Shown: piece by piece, positions 1 through 26,008 of the stretch
Position numbering within the stretch: position 1 is the first letter of the stretch
How the letters are laid out: each line of letters opens with the position of its first letter
Virus genome (UHGV): UHGV-0119843
From: a virus
Direction: 5' to 3' (one strand)
DNA: 28,077 nucleotides
Position numbers and translations under genes: made by a program
Notes under the pieces: generated by a model
What the model saw: only the letters and a program-made list of their open reading frames with translations
The model's database searches: none
What the model was told of the DNA's origin: nothing

Positions 1-98
1 CCTAGCTATGATATGCTTGTCGAATGATATTCGTTCCTCTACATAATCCTGCGCGACCTTATGATTTCACGAATTTTTTGTTTAATGGGACCAACAGC

Positions 99-953
99 AT
101 GAAGATTATCACATTGTTTTTCCTACTTTTATTTTCATTTACTTCATCAAATGCTAAGGAGGTTCGCAATATGATAATAATTTGCTGGGGTGACTCATTA
201 ACGTATGGGGTTGGTTCACAAAGTGGCAACAGCTATCCTGATCTTCTCAGAAAAAATGGTTACGACGTGATAAAAAAGGGGTATCCCGGACAATCTTCAA
301 GCGATATAGCGATGAGGCAAGGGGGCTATTCTCCAATAATCAAAACATTACTTATATCGACTGGCGTTTATAAAGTTACATCTATGGAGCCATCAGGTGA
401 CTTCCGTAAATATAAAGAGATGAGTTTCTATGGGACATTGGAAGGAAAGCCTGTCATCCTATCTCGAGGAGTCGATGGGTCATGGTCAGTTAACTCCTCG
501 ACAGATATAAACTGTGGAAGTGGATGCCGATTTATTACAAAAGAGGGTTCAGAGGCTAAGGATGCTGTAAACATTATTTGGGTTGGCAGAAATAATAATC
601 TCGCATTTCCTCGGTTCGCCGAGAGAGATATTGATTTGATTGTAACTTCTCTTCCCAGAGGGAATAGATTCATTATCGTCGGAATAACGCCATCAAGAAC
701 TGACTCAGAAGAAAACATTAAGGCAATAAAAACTATTAATTCCAGACTAAGCATGCGTTATGGGTCAAGATTCATCGATATGTGGCGTATTCTTAGCTCC
801 GAAGGTATCAAACTTGCAGGAATTTCCCCTTCTCAAGATGACAAAGATGCGTCATCAAATGGGTTAATTCCCCCATCTTTATACAGTGATGGGATACATT
901 TTAATGACAATGGGTATAAAGCAATATCTCTGATTATAGAAAGATATATTTAA
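99..953 (+). CDS. Secreted SGNH/GDSL-family hydrolase (esterase/lipase-like), probable prophage cargo gene
   Basis: GDSL block I motif CWGDSLTYG near N-terminus, GRNNN block and C-terminal DGIHFN (Dxx H block V); signal-peptide-like MKIITLFFLLLFSFTSSNA from ATG 99; alternative ATG 171 preceded by AAGGAGG (156-162); visibly AT-rich relative to neighbouring phage genes. Confidence 0.6.
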   Translation: MKIITLFFLLLFSFTSSNAKEVRNMIIICWGDSLTYGVGSQSGNSYPDLLRKNGYDVIKKGYPGQSSSDIAMRQGGYSPIIKTLLISTGVYKVTSMEPSGDFRKYKEMSFYGTLEGKPVILSRGVDGSWSVNSSTDINCGSGCRFITKEGSEAKDAVNIIWVGRNNNLAFPRFAERDIDLIVTSLPRGNRFIIVGITPSRTDSEENIKAIKTINSRLSMRYGSRFIDMWRILSSEGIKLAGISPSQDDKDASSNGLIPPSLYSDGIHFNDNGYKAISLIIERYI

Positions 954-979: not shown

Positions 980-3193
980 TTAAAGAATGCTTGTAATTAC
1001 TCCAGATATAGAGAATTTAGTAGTTTGCCCGCCCGCGTCCTCGCCGCGGCATGTGACAGATGCCCTAGATGCTGTAGCGCCAAACAGTACATCAACACCT
1101 GTTGTGGCGTTGTACTGAGGGTAGCTATTCACAAGAGAAACAGTGTCAATTGATTGATTGGTCATGTCTGTAGACGCCCTTCCAACTCGCTTCAATATTC
1201 CTGGAACAACGCCTGATTGTCTACGGCAAACAATGTTTAAATCGAATATATATCCGTCATAACCAAAAGCAGATGGTACAAGAGCAAGGCGAAGTGCATC
1301 AGCTGCTGCTGCGCCGGCTGCCAGTTCGAAATATAAACCGGTAAACTCCATACGAGCAAAGTTTTTATCAGTTAATGTTGTATCGTACGTTCTTGATACA
1401 AAGAGAGATGACAATGAAAATGCACCATTTAATGTGATTTTGTTTTGCGCCCTTGTGCTTTGGTGGATCTTAATATCAGGACAGTTGTACAGGTCAAAGC
1501 TTGTATTTACTGCACCAGCCTTATCAAAGACGTTAACTTGAATGGAGAAGTTAGTGTTGTTGTCATGGATAGAAATTGTTGATGCTCTGTCAGCATAATC
1601 TACCTGAACGGTGGGATTAGATTGAATTATGCTGCAACCATGCACTTCAACGCCCATGACAAGTCCTGTTATGAAAACCTTAGATTGCTCAGCATATAAT
1701 CCGTGTATTTCAGTGCCACTACTATTACCTACATATATAATTCCAACCTCGACTGTACCTGAGAGCTCAGTTCCATACACCTGAAGATATGCTGCTCCCC
1801 CCATAGTATGGGCATAAACCAGAGCAGAGTCGAGGGTCAATGTATTTCCTGAAATTGCAGTTATGTATTTAGCTTCAAGAGTTCCACCCTCAATTGCAAT
1901 AACGTCAAATATTGAAAGCCCAGCTGCTGATGTTACTTGTATAGTGGTATCGCCAGCCGAAGCGGCAGCGGAAAGAGTTGTTCTTGGGCCATGAATAGAT
2001 ACAGAAATCTGTTTATCATTGGATCCTCCTATATATCCCTTAAGCTTGGCAGCATTGTTCCTTACCCTTACCGAATTTTTGGTAACGGTAGTTCCATTAG
2101 TTCTTCCTTGCGTGTGGCCATGCCAATTACAAACAAGCCCGCAGATATCTACATTAGAAAGCCTATGCCCTACAGATTTATATGACAGGTCAGCATAGTG
2201 AGCAGTAGATACAGTTCTTGAAGATGCTGAATCACCCTTGTTAGCTATATCACCATCGATAAGAAAACCTCCTACGCTTTGGTAGAAATGCTCACGGTCT
2301 TTCGTTCTATCCCTAGGGTCGATTCCAATGTGATGCATAGATATCCCGGTTGTTGTGGAGATCAGGGTTGTTAAGTCCCAACCGGCGCCGCCAAAGGAAA
2401 AGTAGCGCTTATCAACATCGAGGGTAAATGCACCAATACTATACTTCCCTGCCGGGAATGACAGACTACGTACATTTTCCTGCGCACGAGCAACGCGGTT
2501 CCCCTCATCAACTGCAGCTACGTTTTCAACATCAGTGCCGCCGAACTCGAATGATGCATAGTTCATGTCAGGGAAACATACCAGATTGGCGTATTTACCT
2601 GCGGGCAACGTCAGGCTAAAAGTATTCAGATCCTGATTGGAGGAAATAACCCATTCTGATACGTTTTTTACTCCTTTCCCGTTCACGTACGTTCTGACGT
2701 GCATTCCATCTGGTACGCCACTAAAGTCTGTTTCCAGTAACTGTGTTACAGTTTCTATAGTGTAAATACGTCGAGACAAGGCGTTAGCAACGGTAGCGTC
2801 TAATGGGTCACCAACAAGAATTGATCCTGTACTCTCTCCGAGTCTTTGCTCAAGGCGATCAGGGTCATACTTCAGCACATTAGGAAAATAGAACTGCTGC
2901 GAACCATACGCATCATAAACAGCCATAGAATGGCCTTGCACGGTAACGAATTTGGCAATCTGTCCGTTATGTACCGGATATCCAGCAGCGTTAATGATTA
3001 TTGGTTGCGAAACAGGGACGTGAGAACCGTCTTCGTTCTCTACATAAACCTGAATCTGGTTTTCAGGATTTACTGGGTCAGTGTCAATTTTTCCGATATA
3101 AATTTTGCCATTGGCTACGGCTTTAAAAGAACGCGCCATAGTGAAGAGTTGCGAAGGCATGCTTACCACAACATTGGCTGTAATGTCTGTCAT
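980..3193 (-). CDS. Tailspike protein (P22 gene 9 family) with conserved N-terminal head-binding domain and divergent receptor-binding domain
   Basis: 737-aa ORF; N-terminal ~110 aa ([11 protein letters not shown]...[31 protein letters not shown]...[15 protein letters not shown]...NVLKYDPD) matches the P22 tailspike head-binding domain from memory; remainder not P22-like; ATG at 3193 with GGAG upstream. Confidence 0.9.
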
Positions 3194-5180: not shown

Positions 5181-5298
5181 ATCAATTTCCATATTTGAAA
5201 AAACCGGAAACATCCTAATGACAAACCATTCAAATGTGAAGTAGGCAAAAGATGTTTACTTTTTTCATGGTATCCTGCTCAAAACTAAGGAGGTTGGT

Positions 5299-5622
5299 GT
5301 GTATACAACAGTTATCGTGATAGCTATCGCACTCATTGTGGTTCAGTACCAACTGGCATCTTTAAAACAAAAGATATCTGACCTCAAGACTGAGAACGAA
5401 GCACTTAAAAACTCAATAAAAGATGAGAAGAACAAACTATCATTCACTATATCTGATGTTGAGCAATCCATTGAAATTATTGAGAATAATATTAACAGAC
5501 TAAAAAAAGAAGATATTCATGAAATCAATGACAATATCAAGGATTTGAAATCTTGGCTTAGGAATGTAGGACAAATCGCCACATCAACACGAGATAAGCT
5601 CAATCCATCCATGGATGATTAA
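5299..5622 (+). CDS. Small single-pass membrane protein with long coiled-coil (hypothetical; moron in the sieA-position locus)
   Basis: 107-aa ORF with GTG start 5 nt after AAGGAGG (5287-5293); N-terminal hydrophobic helix YTTVIVIAIALIVVQY then heptad-like K/E/N-rich segment; very AT-rich; stop codon abuts gp16 stop. Confidence 0.55.
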   Translation: MYTTVIVIAIALIVVQYQLASLKQKISDLKTENEALKNSIKDEKNKLSFTISDVEQSIEIIENNINRLKKEDIHEINDNIKDLKSWLRNVGQIATSTRDKLNPSMDD

Positions 5623-9713: not shown

Positions 9714-10169
9714 CTATCCCCCGTGATTCAGGAAGTCGATTAGTTCTTCGCGTGTGGCGCTGTAAAACGTCACGTCATCCACGCCTTTGAAGTATTTCTT
9801 GATGGTTCCTACACGATTAAGGCCAATCATTGCGCAGTACATCTGCCCGTGGCGGAATTTGCGTGCAGCGAACGATGTGACACACTGAACAGTGGTGTTA
9901 GTCAGAATGTATCGCCAGAACGCCAGCCCGATTTCCTTGCTGAATCCACGAACCTCTGGCAGGTACATGGCGTGGCAATCAAAGGTCAAAGGCTGAATCT
10001 CCTGATAGTAAACAATGCCGCCGAACTGCCCGTGCACGTTCACCTCAAAGTAACGGCAATCAGGTTTGTAGTCGTATCCATCACCGTTGTTGCTCCCGGC
10101 GATAATGTCAGGGTGATTTCCGACTGCTTCGATCAGGTCGATGTTTCGCGTTGGTTTGAACTGAATCAT
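9714..10169 (-). CDS. Head-tail/ejection-associated protein gp14 (P22 gene 14 family)
   Basis: 151-aa ORF between tail needle and gp7, start overlaps gp26 stop by 1 nt; synteny with P22 26-14-7. Confidence 0.8.
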   Translation of the reverse strand: MIQFKPTRNIDLIEAVGNHPDIIAGSNNGDGYDYKPDCRYFEVNVHGQFGGIVYYQEIQPLTFDCHAMYLPEVRGFSKEIGLAFWRYILTNTTVQCVTSFAARKFRHGQMYCAMIGLNRVGTIKKYFKGVDDVTFYSATREELIDFLNHGG

Positions 10170-11017
10170 TACTGCTCCGCGATTATCTTGATGGTTGTGG
10201 CAGTAAACGCCGCACCATTCGACTGAATGGTTAACGTACTGCCATTTGTGGCAAGAAAGCCGTCTTTATCCACGCTGAAGAATGTAGCTAACAGGATGTT
10301 GTCGGTTGTTGTCGCCGCATTACGACTGCTGACCAGCGTATCAGGAACAGAGCCGGAAAAGGTTAGCTGCATTGACCTGTTGGCGGTTCCGCTGGGCCAC
10401 GTCCCGACGATCGACAGCTTGAAGAACAAGGTTTTGTTCTCGTTGAACACAACCATCTTGTTGTTAACAGTGTCGAAGAATGGTGCCAACGTCCCGGATG
10501 ACGGCGTGAGCGTTTTCAGCAGGCTAACAAGGTTGGTCGGCGCTGTCGGGATGGTTACAGATACGCCAGAGTAAACAACCTCTGACTTCTTGCGAGTAGT
10601 GGCATACTCCAGAGCATCGATGCGCGTTTCATGGTCTGAAACCTGCGATTCCAGCGACTGAACTCTGGTATCAAGCGACGCAATATCGCTTTCATTCTGA
10701 GCTATTCGTGTTTCATGTTCCTGAAGAGTTGATTCTGCCTGGCTGATTCGCTCCTCATGATTAACAAGCGTTTCTTCCGCAGCAGAAATTCGCTGCTCAT
10801 GGTCAGCGAGAATCACATCCTGCTCATCGTTCCTGACCTGTGCATCATAAGCGCCCTGTCCGGCCTCGTTGGCCTTGTTAGCCACGTTACCAACATCAGT
10901 ACCCTGTGCGATAACGTACAGCAGATATGACTGCGAGAAGATATTGCGTGGAAGGATTGATGTATCGAGCCGCGTCGCCTGGATAGTTACTGGCACGTTG
11001 AGATTGGGATCAGCCAT
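10169..11017 (-). CDS. Tail needle protein gp26 with extended C-terminal knob domain
   Basis: N-terminus [65 protein letters not shown] matches P22 gp26; heptad-rich helical core; 282 aa versus 233 aa in P22, with extra C-terminal beta-rich domain as in Sf6-type needles. Confidence 0.9.
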
Positions 11018-11555
11018 TCACATGCCTCCATGTCTTCCCTTTTTTAATGGCGTGTATGGCCTGAACAGTCACATTATATCTTGCAGCTAACTCGCTAATT
11101 GGCGTAATCAAATCATTTTTTATGACCAGCACTATATCTTCATTTAATTTGGACGATGGATGTTCAGAACCCACATAATGAGGTATTTTCACCCTACCGC
11201 TTCTAGAGCAATGCTGCATGTTTTCATGTTGCGTACACCATTCAAGATTTTCTACATTATTATTTTGATTATTATTATCTATATGGTTGATGAATGGTTT
11301 AGATTCTTTGTTTTCAATAAATGCCTCAGCAACAATTCGATGTATTTTTTTTGGTTTAACCTCTCCATCCTTACAGAGACCAACAAATAGATATCCGCCC
11401 CCATCCTTTGCTGGCTTCAGCCATCTACCCTTCATTAATCGAGTAGCCCCATGGCATGTATTTATTATCCTTGAGTGAGAGTAAACTCTACCATCACGAG
11501 TTACCGCATAAAGCCCCTCATAACCAACTACATCTCTAATATCTTCACTTAACAT
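11010..11555 (-). CDS. Free-standing HNH homing endonuclease (NUMOD4-like N-terminus + HNH_3-like domain) inserted between gp10 and gp26
   Basis: N-terminal [16 protein letters not shown] (NUMOD4-like) and [11 protein letters not shown]...INHIDNN...[10 protein letters not shown] (HNH); AAGGAG 5 nt upstream of ATG 11555; strongly AT-rich; 3' end overlaps gp26 start by 8 nt. Confidence 0.75.
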
Positions 11556-11576
11556 ATCTACTCCTTAAGTTTCGAT

Positions 11577-12995
11577 TTATGTTGTACGAATAGACAGTCC
11601 GGATAATGTAACCGGGCCTTTTGCAATAACTCTGAATTTAAAACCGATGAGACGTCTAACTCTTCCAATCCTGCGCCATAAGACTCGATTGTCATATACA
11701 AATGGAGATTGCAATACGACCATTTGTTCCCTGCCGTAATTTATTCCATCTGTTGTTGCTGATATAAATATTTTATCTATTCTATCACACACGCCGCCTG
11801 ATGTTTCTAATTCAAGGTCATTAATAATGACATTATCTGCCTTTATTAATGGTGAAAATAAAATATGTTCCTGTTGAAGCCCATACTGGCTGCTGATATC
11901 GAACTGCAATTTCCCGGTCACGGACTCCAGCTTATCGCCGCACGTTATCTGATTGCCTTCGTAAATGAAGTCGATAGCGCGGTACACATCGTTATACAGG
12001 CCAGTTTTCAACACACACCATTGCGGACCATTGGCGCTTGAAGATGCGTCGTACACGAGAACATGGCGCGGAAGGTGGATAATCAGCAACTCATGCGCAT
12101 CAAATCGCAGAGACTCCATCACGCCATCAGCCAGTTCATCAGCAGTGTAGGAGCGTAGTATTTTCTCAATGCTCGCGCTGGCGATTGGTGATACCTGACC
12201 GGAGCCGATGATGTATACAGACGGCGCACCCGTTGCCGGATTGCTGATGAACGCATACGAATCAGCAAACGGCGTTTTGCAGTAAGTCCCGGCGATGCCT
12301 TTTTGCACCATCAGCGATGGCTGTGCGACATACAACGCGGCACCAACAGTGGTTGCACCAGTGAGGGAAAAATATTCAATCGTCGATGAACCAAAGCAGA
12401 CGATGAAGTCTCGCCATGTTCCTATGCCGATGATGCCGTCAGGCTGCGATTCTGCGCGATATTGTGCGCTGTAACGGTCAGGATGCGATTCGTCTTCAAG
12501 GTCAGTGATAAACCATGAATCAGTGCCGTCTTTTGACCACGCATAACGCCCACGTAAGCGCGTAATGTCGCGGACTGAGCCTAACTCATACTGCGTGAAT
12601 CCGCTGTCTGTAGGCCAGTTTGAGACGGTTTTAATCGTGCCATCATAGCGATACTCGACCAGCTGACCATTAACGCCTACCGCCTGAGATGTTCGACCAT
12701 GCGCCATTGATACGCGACCACTTCCGGCAACATCACCGACCTCGCTTTCTCCCTTATACAACTTGCCACCGCAAACGCGATAAACAGCATTCTGCGCCAT
12801 GTTGTACTCGACACCGCGCGATACACCATTCACATCAGAACGTTTGGCAATGCCCGGGAATGAGCGAAGATATCCGCTGCTGTTGAGTATTTCTTTGGGT
12901 GTAGCCAGCATATTCACTGGCAGATAGTCGATGTAGTCGGCGTTTCGAAAGTCTTTGCCGACACCTTTCATAAGCGGAAGTTGCTGAATCGGCAT
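11577..12995 (-). CDS. Tail accessory protein gp10 (P22 gene 10 family)
   Basis: 472-aa ORF (same length as P22 gp10), ATG overlaps gp4 stop by 1 nt; conserved 4-10-26 order. Confidence 0.9.
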   Translation of the reverse strand: MPIQQLPLMKGVGKDFRNADYIDYLPVNMLATPKEILNSSGYLRSFPGIAKRSDVNGVSRGVEYNMAQNAVYRVCGGKLYKGESEVGDVAGSGRVSMAHGRTSQAVGVNGQLVEYRYDGTIKTVSNWPTDSGFTQYELGSVRDITRLRGRYAWSKDGTDSWFITDLEDESHPDRYSAQYRAESQPDGIIGIGTWRDFIVCFGSSTIEYFSLTGATTVGAALYVAQPSLMVQKGIAGTYCKTPFADSYAFISNPATGAPSVYIIGSGQVSPIASASIEKILRSYTADELADGVMESLRFDAHELLIIHLPRHVLVYDASSSANGPQWCVLKTGLYNDVYRAIDFIYEGNQITCGDKLESVTGKLQFDISSQYGLQQEHILFSPLIKADNVIINDLELETSGGVCDRIDKIFISATTDGINYGREQMVVLQSPFVYDNRVLWRRIGRVRRLIGFKFRVIAKGPVTLSGLSIRTT

Positions 12996-13495
12996 TATTC
13001 GCTCCCGTTATCGCAAGGTTCCTTTCGGTGGAAGTAATTCCAACCGTTCCACTTCGCCAACTGGTTTCCACTGCCAACAGGCATACGGTTTGGATAACCG
13101 GACTTACATTTAGCGGCTTTTGCTCTGTCCATTGCAGACAGTTTGACGAGTCGCTCTTTCCCGTATCTGGCAGTGGTTATAAGTTTTGCTGACGCTTCCA
13201 GCGCATAATCTGGAGCAATGCGGCAGGCAAGGTTGAAAATGACGGCATTTATAGCGTTATTTGATAATCCGTGCTCATCTCCCGGATCTGGAGCGACATC
13301 TGCATCAGCAAAAATGTAGCCAACGTTGATACCAGGTGACACATCACCGCCAAGCCATTCAGCCATCATCATTTCAAGGTCGTTGACGCCATCTTCCATG
13401 GACTGCGGTTCGACATCGGTTAACGTGGCATTTGATGCCACACCGAGCTTACGTAATGCCGCAAGAACTAAATCACCCTTCGTTGTCAGGTTCAT
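12995..13495 (-). CDS. Tail accessory/adaptor protein gp4 (P22 gene 4 family)
   Basis: 166 aa from ATG 13495 ([32 protein letters not shown]...) matching P22 gp4 length and N-terminus as recalled; ORF-track TTG extension rejected. Confidence 0.85.
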
Positions 13496-14066
13496 CTGCT
13501 GCCGCCTTAGGTTTTCGACCAGGCTTTTTACGCTGTTTTTCTTCTGGCTCTGGCTCTGCAATAGCCGGACGCAAACTCAGGAGTCGTCCAAGAACATCAT
13601 TTGCTTCATGACCATCCCACTCTTTCCCGAACTCAAGCTCAGTACCTTCAGGAAGGAACTCGATTTCTTCAACAGGTAGGTGATAAGTGATTTCGCCTTC
13701 TGGAGTGGTGATACCAGCAATGATCCAGCCATCCCACTCTTCACCGTCACTGTGTTTGCGAGACCACCACGAAAGCTCAGCGTAAGCATGCATCAGCGAT
13801 GAGAAGAGGCGCACTCGGTGAGCGTAAAGCTCGTTAAAAGTGTGATAACCGTCGGACACTTCGCCCATATCAACTGGGGAAGTTTCACCTCCGCCAACAC
13901 TCCTAATGTGATCACCAACAAGAGGATCATCAGGAACATCGTCAGGGTGCTTATACCAGCCATTTGCTAAGTGCACAGCTACATCATCAGGATCAACGGT
14001 TTTCGTTTTCAGCTTGCGTCCCCAGATTTTGGTATCTCCGCCAGCCTGAAAAATCATTACGCTCAT
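13473..14066 (-). CDS. Hypothetical acidic protein encoded between coat and gp4 (no P22 gene recalled at this position)
   Basis: ATG 14066 with GGAG 6 nt upstream, immediately after the coat terminator; 197 aa, acidic with Lys/Pro-rich C-terminal tail; overlaps gp4 start by 23 nt; start choice uncertain. Confidence 0.5.
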
Positions 14067-23253: not shown

Positions 23254-23626
23254 CTGAACCTCCCCGGCGCGTTATGAGCGCCACCAGGGAGCCGATATCC
23301 TGATTATTCAGGAACGTCAGGATTTTAACGGCTAAAGCAGAGACGATTACGGCACCAATAGCATCCAGAGGTTTATCACTGTATCCGGTCAAGTTCGCCA
23401 GCTTGGAGCCAACCAACCCAGAGCAAAGAATCCCGGCAATATATGACACGATAAAATATGCCAGTCGGCGCGATGCACTCAGATCTGCAGCTGTTGCTAT
23501 GTAGAATACAGCCCCTGCAAATGCGCCAAATACAACGCCGTAATCAGTTCCGGTCAGCAGTCCATAAACACTGGCACCCGTCAGGGCACCACCAGCCAGC
23601 CCAGTACCGGAAATCGGATCGGACAT
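23240..23626 (-). CDS. Putative holin (multi-TM small membrane protein, first gene of lysis cassette)
   Basis: 128-aa Gly/Ala-rich hydrophobic protein with several TM segments and charged C-terminus; GAGGGGG SD before ATG 23626. Confidence 0.55.
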   Translation of the reverse strand: MSDPISGTGLAGGALTGASVYGLLTGTDYGVVFGAFAGAVFYIATAADLSASRRLAYFIVSYIAGILCSGLVGSKLANLTGYSDKPLDAIGAVIVSALAVKILTFLNNQDIGSLVALITRRGGSGGAK

Positions 23627-23670
23627 TTAGCCCCCTCTTAATTGCTGTTGGTCCTCTCAGAACGAGGGGA

Positions 23671-23699
23671 AACAAAAAAGGCCGCATTAAGGCGGCCTT
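23671..23699 (-). terminator. Rho-independent terminator between moron ORF and lysis cassette
   Basis: Minus-strand hairpin AAGGCCGC-CUUAAU-GCGGCCUU followed by UUUUUUGUU (plus A-run 23671-23679). Confidence 0.65.
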
Positions 23700-23716
23700 G
23701 GTAAGGTATAGTTTTT

Positions 23717-24313
23717 TTAAGATAAACTTTGATTGATATACTCATGACACCCAAAAATAAAGGCGTTTTGTGCATCAATAAATGACTTTTTTTCTTCCGG
23801 AGTAAAATACCCTTTTGTAAAACATACTTTTAGCGCTTTTTGAAGATCTGCCGTCAGGGTTATCAACTTACAACCTTCCTCATCAGGCCTTATTAATAGA
23901 AGTAATTTATTTTTACTTATTTCAGCGGCCTTTATTGGAACTTGAATCTCCTCAGGGAAAACACCCTTAGCCAATATATCCATATTCTTATTTCCGACCA
24001 GATGCCATTGCTCAAATGTGCTGGCCAACATAATTACGTCTGTCACATGCTCAGCGCCAGCAAAACGTATTTGTTGCGCCAATTCTTTATTAGTATTCAA
24101 GTGAGCCTGTAATGTGGCTAAGGCAAAATTTTCTTTGATTGCCCTGTATGCAACCCAACCAGTTATTCCTGCGGCAATAACGCCTGCAAGAGCAGTAATG
24201 AGTGTTTCAAAAGGAAAGGAAGAACTGATTTCAATTGGCGGTAATTTTTCTATTACCAAGGTCAACTCGCCAGTAGTTTTTTCGAAAGCGTACGGTACGT
24301 TTTGCCAAGTCAT
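23717..24313 (-). CDS. Hypothetical membrane-anchored protein (AT-rich moron between Q-like gene and lysis cassette)
   Basis: 198-aa ORF, AGGAGG 4 nt upstream of ATG 24313, one predicted TM helix (LITALAGVIAAGITGWVAY); AT-rich; no recognisable catalytic motif. Confidence 0.6.
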   Translation of the reverse strand: MTWQNVPYAFEKTTGELTLVIEKLPPIEISSSFPFETLITALAGVIAAGITGWVAYRAIKENFALATLQAHLNTNKELAQQIRFAGAEHVTDVIMLASTFEQWHLVGNKNMDILAKGVFPEEIQVPIKAAEISKNKLLLLIRPDEEGCKLITLTADLQKALKVCFTKGYFTPEEKKSFIDAQNAFIFGCHEYINQSLS

Positions 24314-25012: not shown

Positions 25013-26008
25013 TTACGCCAGTACGCCTATTGCCAGCGCACGATCGATAAAACGAAATATCAGCTCCAGCTGGGAGCCATACTTCTCTTCAAATGCCACG
25101 GTATCCGCATGCAGCTCGTCGTGATGCTTTCTGCACAAAGGCAACACAAAGAGGTCATGCGCTTTTGTACCCATTCCACCCTGACCGTGGCCTATCAGGT
25201 GGTGGGGATCATCAGCAGGCTTTCCACAACATGCACACGGCTGTGTCTTAACCCAGCGCGTGTACTTTTCATTAACCCAGCGGCGACGTTTCGGGCGTAA
25301 CATAAAAGACTCCGGCGACTCCGGATCCACTTTCAGCGCCAGCACCTTTTTCGCTTTATCCTGGATGATGCTGGTGGCAGGAACCAAAGGCACAAGGTCA
25401 CTTTCCCGGGTGACAGACGGCACAACAGGCTTCGGTAATCTCAGAGCCTTACGGGCTGCACTTTCCGGTAAGGCATCCGCCAGGTCATTACGAACCAGCC
25501 ACCAGCACAGTTCCGGCATTGTCATAACGTGACTATCATCAAAACCGAGATCCCGACGCACGACAGACAACACCCAGCGAGCACAGTTATCCGTTGCCAT
25601 TGATTCCAGCCGTTCCGTGAACTGATCGCGCAGCTGGTTATCGCAGTGCCAGCACAGACGGATTGCGCCCGGAGCGTGTCGCATTGTGGTCATGTTCTCG
25701 CTGTGCCAGTCGGAATGAGGCCACTGGCAGCCTTTTTCACGAAGTAACCAGCTTTCAAGACATTCCACGCCACCAGCACGACGGATCACTGCCTCATTGC
25801 GGAACACGGCCCGAACGGCAGGATCATCCGCCAGCGGTTGTGATGCAGCCGGAACGGCACCACTGGCGAAAGATGAATAACGTTCCGGCTCAGGCTCCAG
25901 CAGGACACGCCCCTGCATAAACAGTGGCATCAGCTCTGAACCTGGCCTGAACAATACGATCCCCATACGCGGGGCAATTTCAGGGGTCAGTAGTGCTCTC
26001 ACGGTCAC
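25013..26008 (-). CDS. DUF968 (YdfU-like) protein with C-terminal Cys/His cluster (HNH-like)
   Basis: 331-aa ORF; C-terminal CACCGK...DPHHLIGHGQGG...PLCRKHH.ELH motif; nin-region location; start codon (GTG 26008 versus internal ATG) uncertain. Confidence 0.65.
   Translation of the reverse strand: MTVRALLTPEIAPRMGIVLFRPGSELMPLFMQGRVLLEPEPERYSSFASGAVPAASQPLADDPAVRAVFRNEAVIRRAGGVECLESWLLREKGCQWPHSDWHSENMTTMRHAPGAIRLCWHCDNQLRDQFTERLESMATDNCARWVLSVVRRDLGFDDSHVMTMPELCWWLVRNDLADALPESAARKALRLPKPVVPSVTRESDLVPLVPATSIIQDKAKKVLALKVDPESPESFMLRPKRRRWVNEKYTRWVKTQPCACCGKPADDPHHLIGHGQGGMGTKAHDLFVLPLCRKHHDELHADTVAFEEKYGSQLELIFRFIDRALAIGVLA

Follow-up and report, generated by a model that had tools for sequence, protein, structure and literature searches.

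The UHGV virus genome UHGV-0119843, analysed here as one window of 28,077 nt (the whole stretch of DNA at its full length), belongs to a phage or prophage of the P22-like (Lederbergvirus) type whose late genes lie on the minus strand, and it carries a 181-aa open reading frame (ORF) between gp10, the tail hub gene, and the tail needle gene. We propose, with a probability of about 0.72, that this ORF encodes a free-standing I-HmuI-like homing endonuclease which has spread by break-induced gene conversion, and whose product would cleave a target in related genomes and so be mobile between them. The gene forms part of a cassette of ~850 bp (window 11018-11865) that consists of an AT-rich 3' end of gp10, a 21-nt spacer and the endonuclease ORF itself. 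In what follows, "cassette" refers to this unit.

The extent of the cassette emerges from comparison with phages in which genes 10 and 26 abut with no gene between them, as they do alike in P22, Sf6 (with a TAATG overlap) and HK620. Codons 1-375 of gp10 are 94.8% identical to Sf6 at the nucleotide level, codons 376-472 are 53.6% identical (63% at the amino acid level), and identity returns to ~95% exactly from the needle start codon onward. GC content at third codon positions (GC3) is 0.245 in this gp10 tail against 0.60 in Sf6, and the low-GC tract runs past the ORF, through the last 96 gp10 codons, to ~11865. Judged by these alignments, the change at the junction relative to Sf6 is a block replacement and not a simple insertion. 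Aligned with insert-free relatives, the junction gives the insert sharp edges: on the left, immediately after conserved Q-Q-E-H codons of gp10 in every cassette locus, and on the right, at the needle ATG. An initial annotation of this DNA, made from the sequence alone, had taken the ORF by itself to be the inserted unit and had pointed to its AT-rich contrast with the flanking genes. The site of insertion is confirmed and the ORF is indeed low in GC (GC 0.379 and GC3 0.30, against a GC of 0.481 for the whole window), but the last 96 codons of gp10 are AT-rich as well, and the unit is the larger block. The same annotation expected gene conversion of a neighbouring tail gene, and the replacement of the gp10 3' end along with the ORF fits that expectation. 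As side observations, the GC3 of the gp10 tail (0.25) fits that of the endonuclease gene (0.30) and not that of the phage (about 0.55), and all other gp10 found, those of AT-rich hosts such as Hamiltonella APSE and Proteus included, stand at much the same distance (57-70% aa identity) from this AT-rich end.

The cassette gp10 end is completely linked to the endonuclease gene. In a survey of 111 gp10 loci (L004-L114), drawn from species-representative genomes and IMG/VR, a NUMOD4-HNH gene was present at the junction in all 16 loci with a window-type gp10 tail and in none of the ~90 with an ordinary one, and in 6/6 further loci the AT-rich gp10 end and the NUMOD4-HNH gene again occurred together. 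A search of 5,426 complete E. coli genomes found the gp10 body at 967 places in 920 genomes and the AT-rich tail in 44 genomes; 42 of these 44 have an annotated NUMOD4 or HNH gene beside the tail, and in the other two that gene is split by an IS3 element. The cassette thus accounts for ~5% of E. coli P22-like gp10 copies and is a minority allele, gene 10 abutting gene 26 in the remaining ~95% of E. coli P22-like prophages, so that the ORF is far from universal among relatives. The window's own endonuclease variant (at least 98.5% identity) was found in only four genomes. The endonuclease ORF is intact in all cassette loci examined but three, and those three are disrupted by insertion sequences (IS). 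Such disruptions include an IS1 in the spacer and start codon region of the endonuclease gene (L040, 4472-5169) and an IS3-family element splitting the gene in E. coli ETEC6333 (L121, 1217-2445) and ETEC6334; the ETEC6333/6334 prophage looks degraded.

At the protein level, a hidden Markov model (HMM) search places a NUMOD4 domain at residues 7-60 (E 2.6e-8) and an HNH_3 domain (PF13392, of the beta-beta-alpha-metal fold) at residues 70-114 (E 9.4e-9; 35.2 bits, cutoff 24.8), both above the Pfam curated cutoffs, in keeping with the NUMOD4-like N-terminus and HNH motif noted in the initial annotation. The ORF also matches PHROG 59, 'HNH endonuclease' (E 2.9e-52), and has 2026 database homologues at E <= 1e-10; with so many homologues and these domain matches, it is no chance ORF. 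RefSeq labels such genes 'NUMOD4 domain-containing protein' or 'HNH endonuclease'. The only solved structure matched by sequence is the SPO1 intron endonuclease I-HmuI (PDB 1U3E, phmmer E 5e-12). An AlphaFold2 model built from 52 homologues reached a mean predicted local distance difference test score (pLDDT) of 90.9, and its top Foldseek match was again I-HmuI (1u3e_M), over 182 columns and the full length (E 2.4e-8, prob 1.00); the next match, I-PpoI, was far weaker and covered the N-terminal sheet only. The model comprises beta strands at 6-70, followed by the HNH core (88-119) and, at the C-terminus, a helix-turn-helix domain of three helices (139-171). When the I-HmuI active site D74/H75/N96 is mapped onto the protein sequence, its equivalents are N90/H91/N112, with H91 in the place of the general base and N112 in that of a metal-binding Asn. 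The alignment of the 52 homologues shows no variation at N90, H91 and N103 and at least 90% conservation at N112. Compared with same-locus copies that are 80-86% identical, the ratio of non-synonymous to synonymous substitution rates (dN/dS) is ~0.05-0.06, which places the protein under strong purifying selection and shows that it is no decaying relic. By sequence and modelled fold, these results support the assignment of the 181-aa protein as an HNH endonuclease of the I-HmuI type, with DNA cleavage as its predicted activity.

The layout of the junction, established from the ORF list and Pfam, is gp10, endonuclease ORF and needle gene in that order along the minus strand. The gp10 stop codon TAA occupies 11577-11579, the endonuclease ATG 11553-11555 and its TGA stop 11010-11012, and the needle ATG at 11015-11017 leaves an 8-nt overlap with the end of the endonuclease ORF (ATGGCTGA); the initial annotation had described this arrangement correctly, from the 21-nt distance to the gp10 stop to the overlap with the needle start. 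The endonuclease gene has an AAGGAG ribosome-binding site of its own at 11561-11566, 5 nt before the ATG, and the spacer ATCGAAAC..AGGAGTAGAT is kept in all nine cassette loci compared. The ending CATGGAGGCATGTNA ATGGCTGA is kept in all NUMOD4-HNH variants, which are otherwise 43-86% identical, and the GGAGG ribosome-binding site of the needle gene is thereby preserved. Searches of the surroundings were negative in three respects: no Rfam family, whether an intron or another structured RNA, was detected in 10000-13200 at E <= 1; a consensus scan found promoter and terminator sites no more often than in shuffled sequence, with none flanking the ORF on its strand; and tblastn found no second copy of the endonuclease family in the window. 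As the scan gave the ORF no promoter or terminator of its own, we take it to be co-transcribed with the late operon.

Database relatives of the endonuclease form a graded series, at 99, 86, 80, 76, 56, 48 and 43% identity, and all five that could be located occupy the same junction, where the length of the spacer (21 nt) and the overlap with the needle gene are unchanged. The gp10 bodies of these relatives are only 66-84% identical to that of the window and their needle genes are of different types. In these backbones, too, the last 96 gp10 codons are AT-rich (GC3 0.23-0.35), and AT-richness is therefore a stable property of the cassette; the cassette part of gp10 is 75-86% (nt) and 87-93% (aa) identical to that of the window, closer than the rest of the gene. 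The endonucleases and the gp10 tails also differ from each other in their histories. In pairwise matrices the gp10 tail is 96-98% identical among HZ41, L039, L047 and L119, while the endonuclease bodies of the same four are only 62-68% identical; on the other hand, the endonucleases of L039 and L047, which have an E. coli-type backbone, share 90-95% identity with the one in L120, although the L120 backbone is only 74% identical. Endonuclease bodies, as far as these matrices tell, are exchanged independently of the gp10 part, and the history of the cassette is decoupled from that of the backbone. In L039-type loci, the ~30 nt immediately upstream of the cassette edge are additional gp10 sequence of Citrobacter-like type, which we read, from the alignment, as a longer conversion tract in which donor backbone was probably co-converted. 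A different left breakpoint (-319) in these loci was considered and rejected, the same stretch being present in a cassette-free Citrobacter-type gp10 (L013).

These comparisons also bear on age. The insertion had at first been thought recent, a view we abandon: relatives with as little as 43% aa identity occur at the same site with the same spacer, and synonymous sites are saturated, so residence at the junction is old. Taken together, complete linkage, spread across backbones and discordant histories are what would be expected of a homing element with co-converted flanks and turnover of variants at one site. The earlier suggestion of a free-standing homing endonuclease is thus upheld by domains, fold, sporadic presence and a co-inherited flank, with nuclease activity and homing as its predicted properties.

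Other nuclease genes were observed at this junction and at further intergenic sites. An unrelated 164-aa gene of the HNH_3+AP2 type occupies the gp10/needle junction in vB_EcoP-683R2 (L003, ON470594, 1725-2219) and in L061, L106 and L112, as well as in 16 complete E. coli genomes, which makes the junction a hotspot for at least two endonuclease families. Carriers of this gene have an ordinary GC-rich gp10 end in which only the last ~30 nt are altered; the final 14 nt of the HNH_3+AP2 gene (AGGATTGAGTAATG) reproduce the end of a normal gp10 and the start of the needle gene. A second NUMOD4-HNH gene, of 194 aa, lies between gp4 and gp10 in L046 (3142-3726), in L045 and in Salmonella phage UPF_BP1 (L122, 2501-3085). 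In L046 the adjoining codons, the first of gp10, have diverged as well. Over its first ~45 residues the 194-aa enzyme is almost the same as the HZ41-type variant of the gp10/needle site, which suggests an exchange of modules between these enzymes. In Escherichia phage N7 (L123, MH717096, 1501-2022) a further relative, at 45% aa identity, has the Q antiterminator on one side and the holin gene on the other, so that in P22-like phages the family makes use of several sites between genes.

The mechanism we consider most likely is drawn by analogy with I-HmuI and I-HmuII, T4 MobA and MobE, and the Seg enzymes. The endonuclease gene would be expressed late in infection, as part of the late operon transcript and with its own AAGGAG site for translation. 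When a cassette-bearing genome meets a cassette-free P22-like genome, be it a co-infecting phage or a resident prophage, the cassette-free allele would be nicked or cut, probably in the final ~300 bp of gp10 or else where gp10 and the needle gene join, while the cassette's own gp10 end, which differs at 46% of positions, would presumably resist its enzyme. The break would be resected and would then recombine by homology in the conserved gp10 body to one side and in the needle gene to the other. The block itself has no usable homology to the ordinary gp10/needle junction, which would force the crossovers into these two flanks, and repair would copy the whole block into the recipient, amounting to 'intronless homing' with co-conversion. 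The cost to the host phage would be kept low by an intact gp10 frame and by the placement of the needle gene's GGAGG site inside the last endonuclease codons.

A number of observations weigh against this reading or limit it. Complete linkage is also expected from non-homology inside the block, wherever the cut falls and even without any cutting; because a non-homologous block cannot be split by recombination anyway, linkage alone is no proof of a target in the gp10 tail. Nor does sequence comparison point to one: between 20 cassette-free and 8 cassette alleles, differences extend over the whole 289 nt, with mild peaks at -222..-198 and -24..0 and no single target site. The low frequency of the cassette (~5%) means that any drive is weak or is offset by loss, and many copies lie in prophages, a setting in which modules also travel by vertical inheritance and by ordinary recombination. 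In the active site, the position of I-HmuI D74 is taken by Asn90, invariant in the family, for which metal binding is a prediction. Finally, neither a donor nor an intermediate lineage of the AT-rich gp10 end was found in searches of phage records and proteins, the nearest non-cassette alleles being at most 70% identical: tblastn against 50,697 phage records returned only HZ41 (92.8%), everything else being at or below 67%, and a search of the 97-aa gp10 segment against 5.8 billion proteins returned short fragments only, of cassette type at 93-100% and then none above 70%.

How far do other explanations account for the same data? One is that the nuclease is kept mainly for the benefit of the phage, as a weapon against co-infecting or resident P22-like genomes that carry the ordinary gp10 allele or a rival cassette. 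Such an enzyme would favour its own flanking tail genes, and the idea overlaps with homing, differing in that it puts selection at the level of the phage. Strong purifying selection on the endonuclease would fit, as would the long residence at one site, where at least four diverged variants stand beside a 96-98% identical gp10 part in the manner of competing endonucleases. Encounters should also be frequent, given P22-like prophages in 920 of 5,426 E. coli genomes, and there are precedents in the competition between I-HmuI and I-HmuII (Goodrich-Blair & Shub 1996, as cited in PMC2988022) and in the intron endonuclease of PhiPA3 (PMC11620839). However, a population frequency of ~5% speaks against a large advantage, and every observation is explained by selfish homing alone; we regard this explanation as unlikely.

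Still less likely, in our judgement, is that the gene is an inactive or immobile remnant and that the block is a mosaic module shuffled passively by general recombination at its conserved flanks. P22-like genomes are heavily mosaic, the differing needle gene types among cassette loci being an example, linkage within a non-homologous block is automatic, and the three copies disrupted by IS1 or IS3 have had no obvious consequence in their prophages. A passive module would, however, hardly show a dN/dS of ~0.05 or catalytic N-H...N...N residues that are invariant or nearly so, and, the three disrupted copies aside, the cassette loci examined have the ORF at full length. Moreover, the cassette is found in backbones as low as 66-74% identical, where unaided exchange should be inefficient. 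A role of the HNH protein in the phage life cycle, as a terminase-associated factor like HK97 gp74 or in tail assembly, is highly improbable: although the gene lies in the virion-assembly operon, is translationally linked to the needle gene and has packaging-assisting HNH proteins as parallels (PMC10448857), it is absent from P22, Sf6, HK620 and ~95% of relatives, all of them normal in assembly and packaging, and this pattern of presence and absence effectively refutes such a role. The protein also has the set of domains typical of homing enzymes of the I-HmuI type, and in other phages the same junction is taken by an HNH-AP2 gene unrelated to it. As for the HK97 gp74 type in particular, the gene lies ~7 kb from the ORFs assigned to terminase by P22 gene order and does not adjoin them.

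The homing endonuclease reading can also be set against known systems. [quoted passage not shown] The protein described here shares with I-HmuI the full-length fold and the three-part architecture (NUMOD4 sheet, HNH core and C-terminal helix-turn-helix), the conserved catalytic His and Asn and a similar size (181 aa against 174 aa), and it shares with I-HmuI and I-HmuII the occurrence of diverged variants at one site in related phages. It differs in having a 13-residue insertion in the N-terminal domain and Asn in place of D74, at an overall identity of ~26-30%, and its gene is intergenic, between two intact genes and with its own ribosome-binding site, whereas I-HmuI is intron-encoded. Free-standing endonucleases of phages cleave at a distance of hundreds of bp from the gene that encodes them, with co-conversion of the flanks, and the HNH members MobA, MobE, I-HmuI and I-HmuII nick DNA (PMC2988022). 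The T4-type free-standing enzymes (MobA and MobE of the HNH class, SegF and SegG of the GIY-YIG class) resemble our case in that the nuclease gene is intergenic, with conserved essential genes on both sides, and takes a diverged part of its neighbour along, a pattern that fits distant cleavage, co-conversion and marker exclusion as described for such enzymes (PMC2988022, PMC2790892). In contrast to the T-even case, the host is a temperate lambdoid podovirus and not a virulent phage, and what is co-converted at the flank is no graded tract but a fixed allele of 289 nt with sharp bounds; Mob proteins, for their part, have the HNH first, followed by a C-terminal zinc-finger-type region, and lack NUMOD4. 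In the 'HEG (homing endonuclease gene) islands' of Barth, Dunham & Seed 2023 (PMC10448857), nuclease genes likewise lie beside essential structural genes and mark recombination boundaries, and one locus accepts different endonuclease genes, as the gp10/needle junction does; those islands belong to ICP1 and other lytic phages, however, and involve the T5orf172 and HNH-AP2 families. The literature we searched, with incomplete coverage, held no description of the gp10/needle junction as a homing site or of a NUMOD4-HNH clade there.

The features on which this account rests are collected in Table 1. The ejection-protein, coat, portal and terminase genes were assigned to the remaining large ORFs of the window solely by their position in the P22 gene order. 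Beside the tailspike at the left end is a GDSL-type lipase/acylhydrolase gene (24-953, plus strand) in a low-GC island, which may be an accessory gene that modifies surface polysaccharide. Further AT-rich stretches, with a GC of 0.34-0.40, lie at 5201-5600 and 23601-24200. A 331-aa protein encoded at 25013-26008 on the minus strand combines DUF968 with a weak HNHc_6 match; it is a putative nuclease of the NinG-region type, unrelated to the ORF at the gp10/needle junction.

Table 1. Positions of the tail genes and of the cassette parts in the 28,077-nt window.
Feature	Position	Strand	Basis
Tailspike with P22 head-binding domain	980-3193		Pfam
Tail needle gene (gp26 homologue, Sf6-type knob)	10169..11017	-	PF16532, E 3e-117
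Endonuclease ORF, 181 aa, ATG start, free-standing, I-HmuI-like	11010..11555	-	ORF list, Pfam, PHROG
GGAGG Shine-Dalgarno sequence for the needle gene, within the last endonuclease codons (W-R-H-V-N-G)	11025..11029	-	
Spacer, 21 nt, holding the endonuclease gene's own Shine-Dalgarno sequence	11556..11576	-	read from sequence
gp10 (tail hub / packaged-DNA stabilisation protein)	11577..12995	-	PF11134 Phage_stabilise, E 9e-281
gp10, replaced AT-rich 3' end (last 96 codons and stop)	11577..11865	-	alignment to Sf6, GC3, linkage
gp10, backbone part, ordinary E. coli/Shigella P22-like sequence	11866..12995	-	93-97% nt identity to Sf6, HZ41, 683R2
gp4	12995-13561		Pfam

Our results raise a broader possibility, to which we give little credence: that the gp10/needle junction is a long-lived arena of competing endonuclease lineages (at least four NUMOD4-HNH variants plus HNH-AP2) whose variants may replace one another, and that the sharply delimited and much diverged C-terminal domain of gp10 in the cassette is a functionally distinct tail-hub allele and not just an immunity tag. 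If this were true, the endonuclease would drive an adaptive structural gp10 allele through P22-like phage populations, and that allele could alter needle/hub interactions or escape host defences that sense gp10.

Homing endonucleases are best documented in large virulent phages. What we describe illustrates such an enzyme clearly, but it is an ordinary case and no new kind of system. Its interest is that of a clean case found in nature, in temperate phages and prophages of the P22-like type, with a ~850-bp cassette, a sharp segment of an essential tail-hub gene that appears co-converted, and rival variants. Sf6, HK620 and P22 are genetically tractable cassette-free recipients, which makes the case directly testable. 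For annotation and phylogeny, it matters that the last 96 gp10 codons in cassette genomes have a history unlike that of the rest of the gene. More generally, the case would show a selfish nuclease shaping mosaic boundaries within virion genes.

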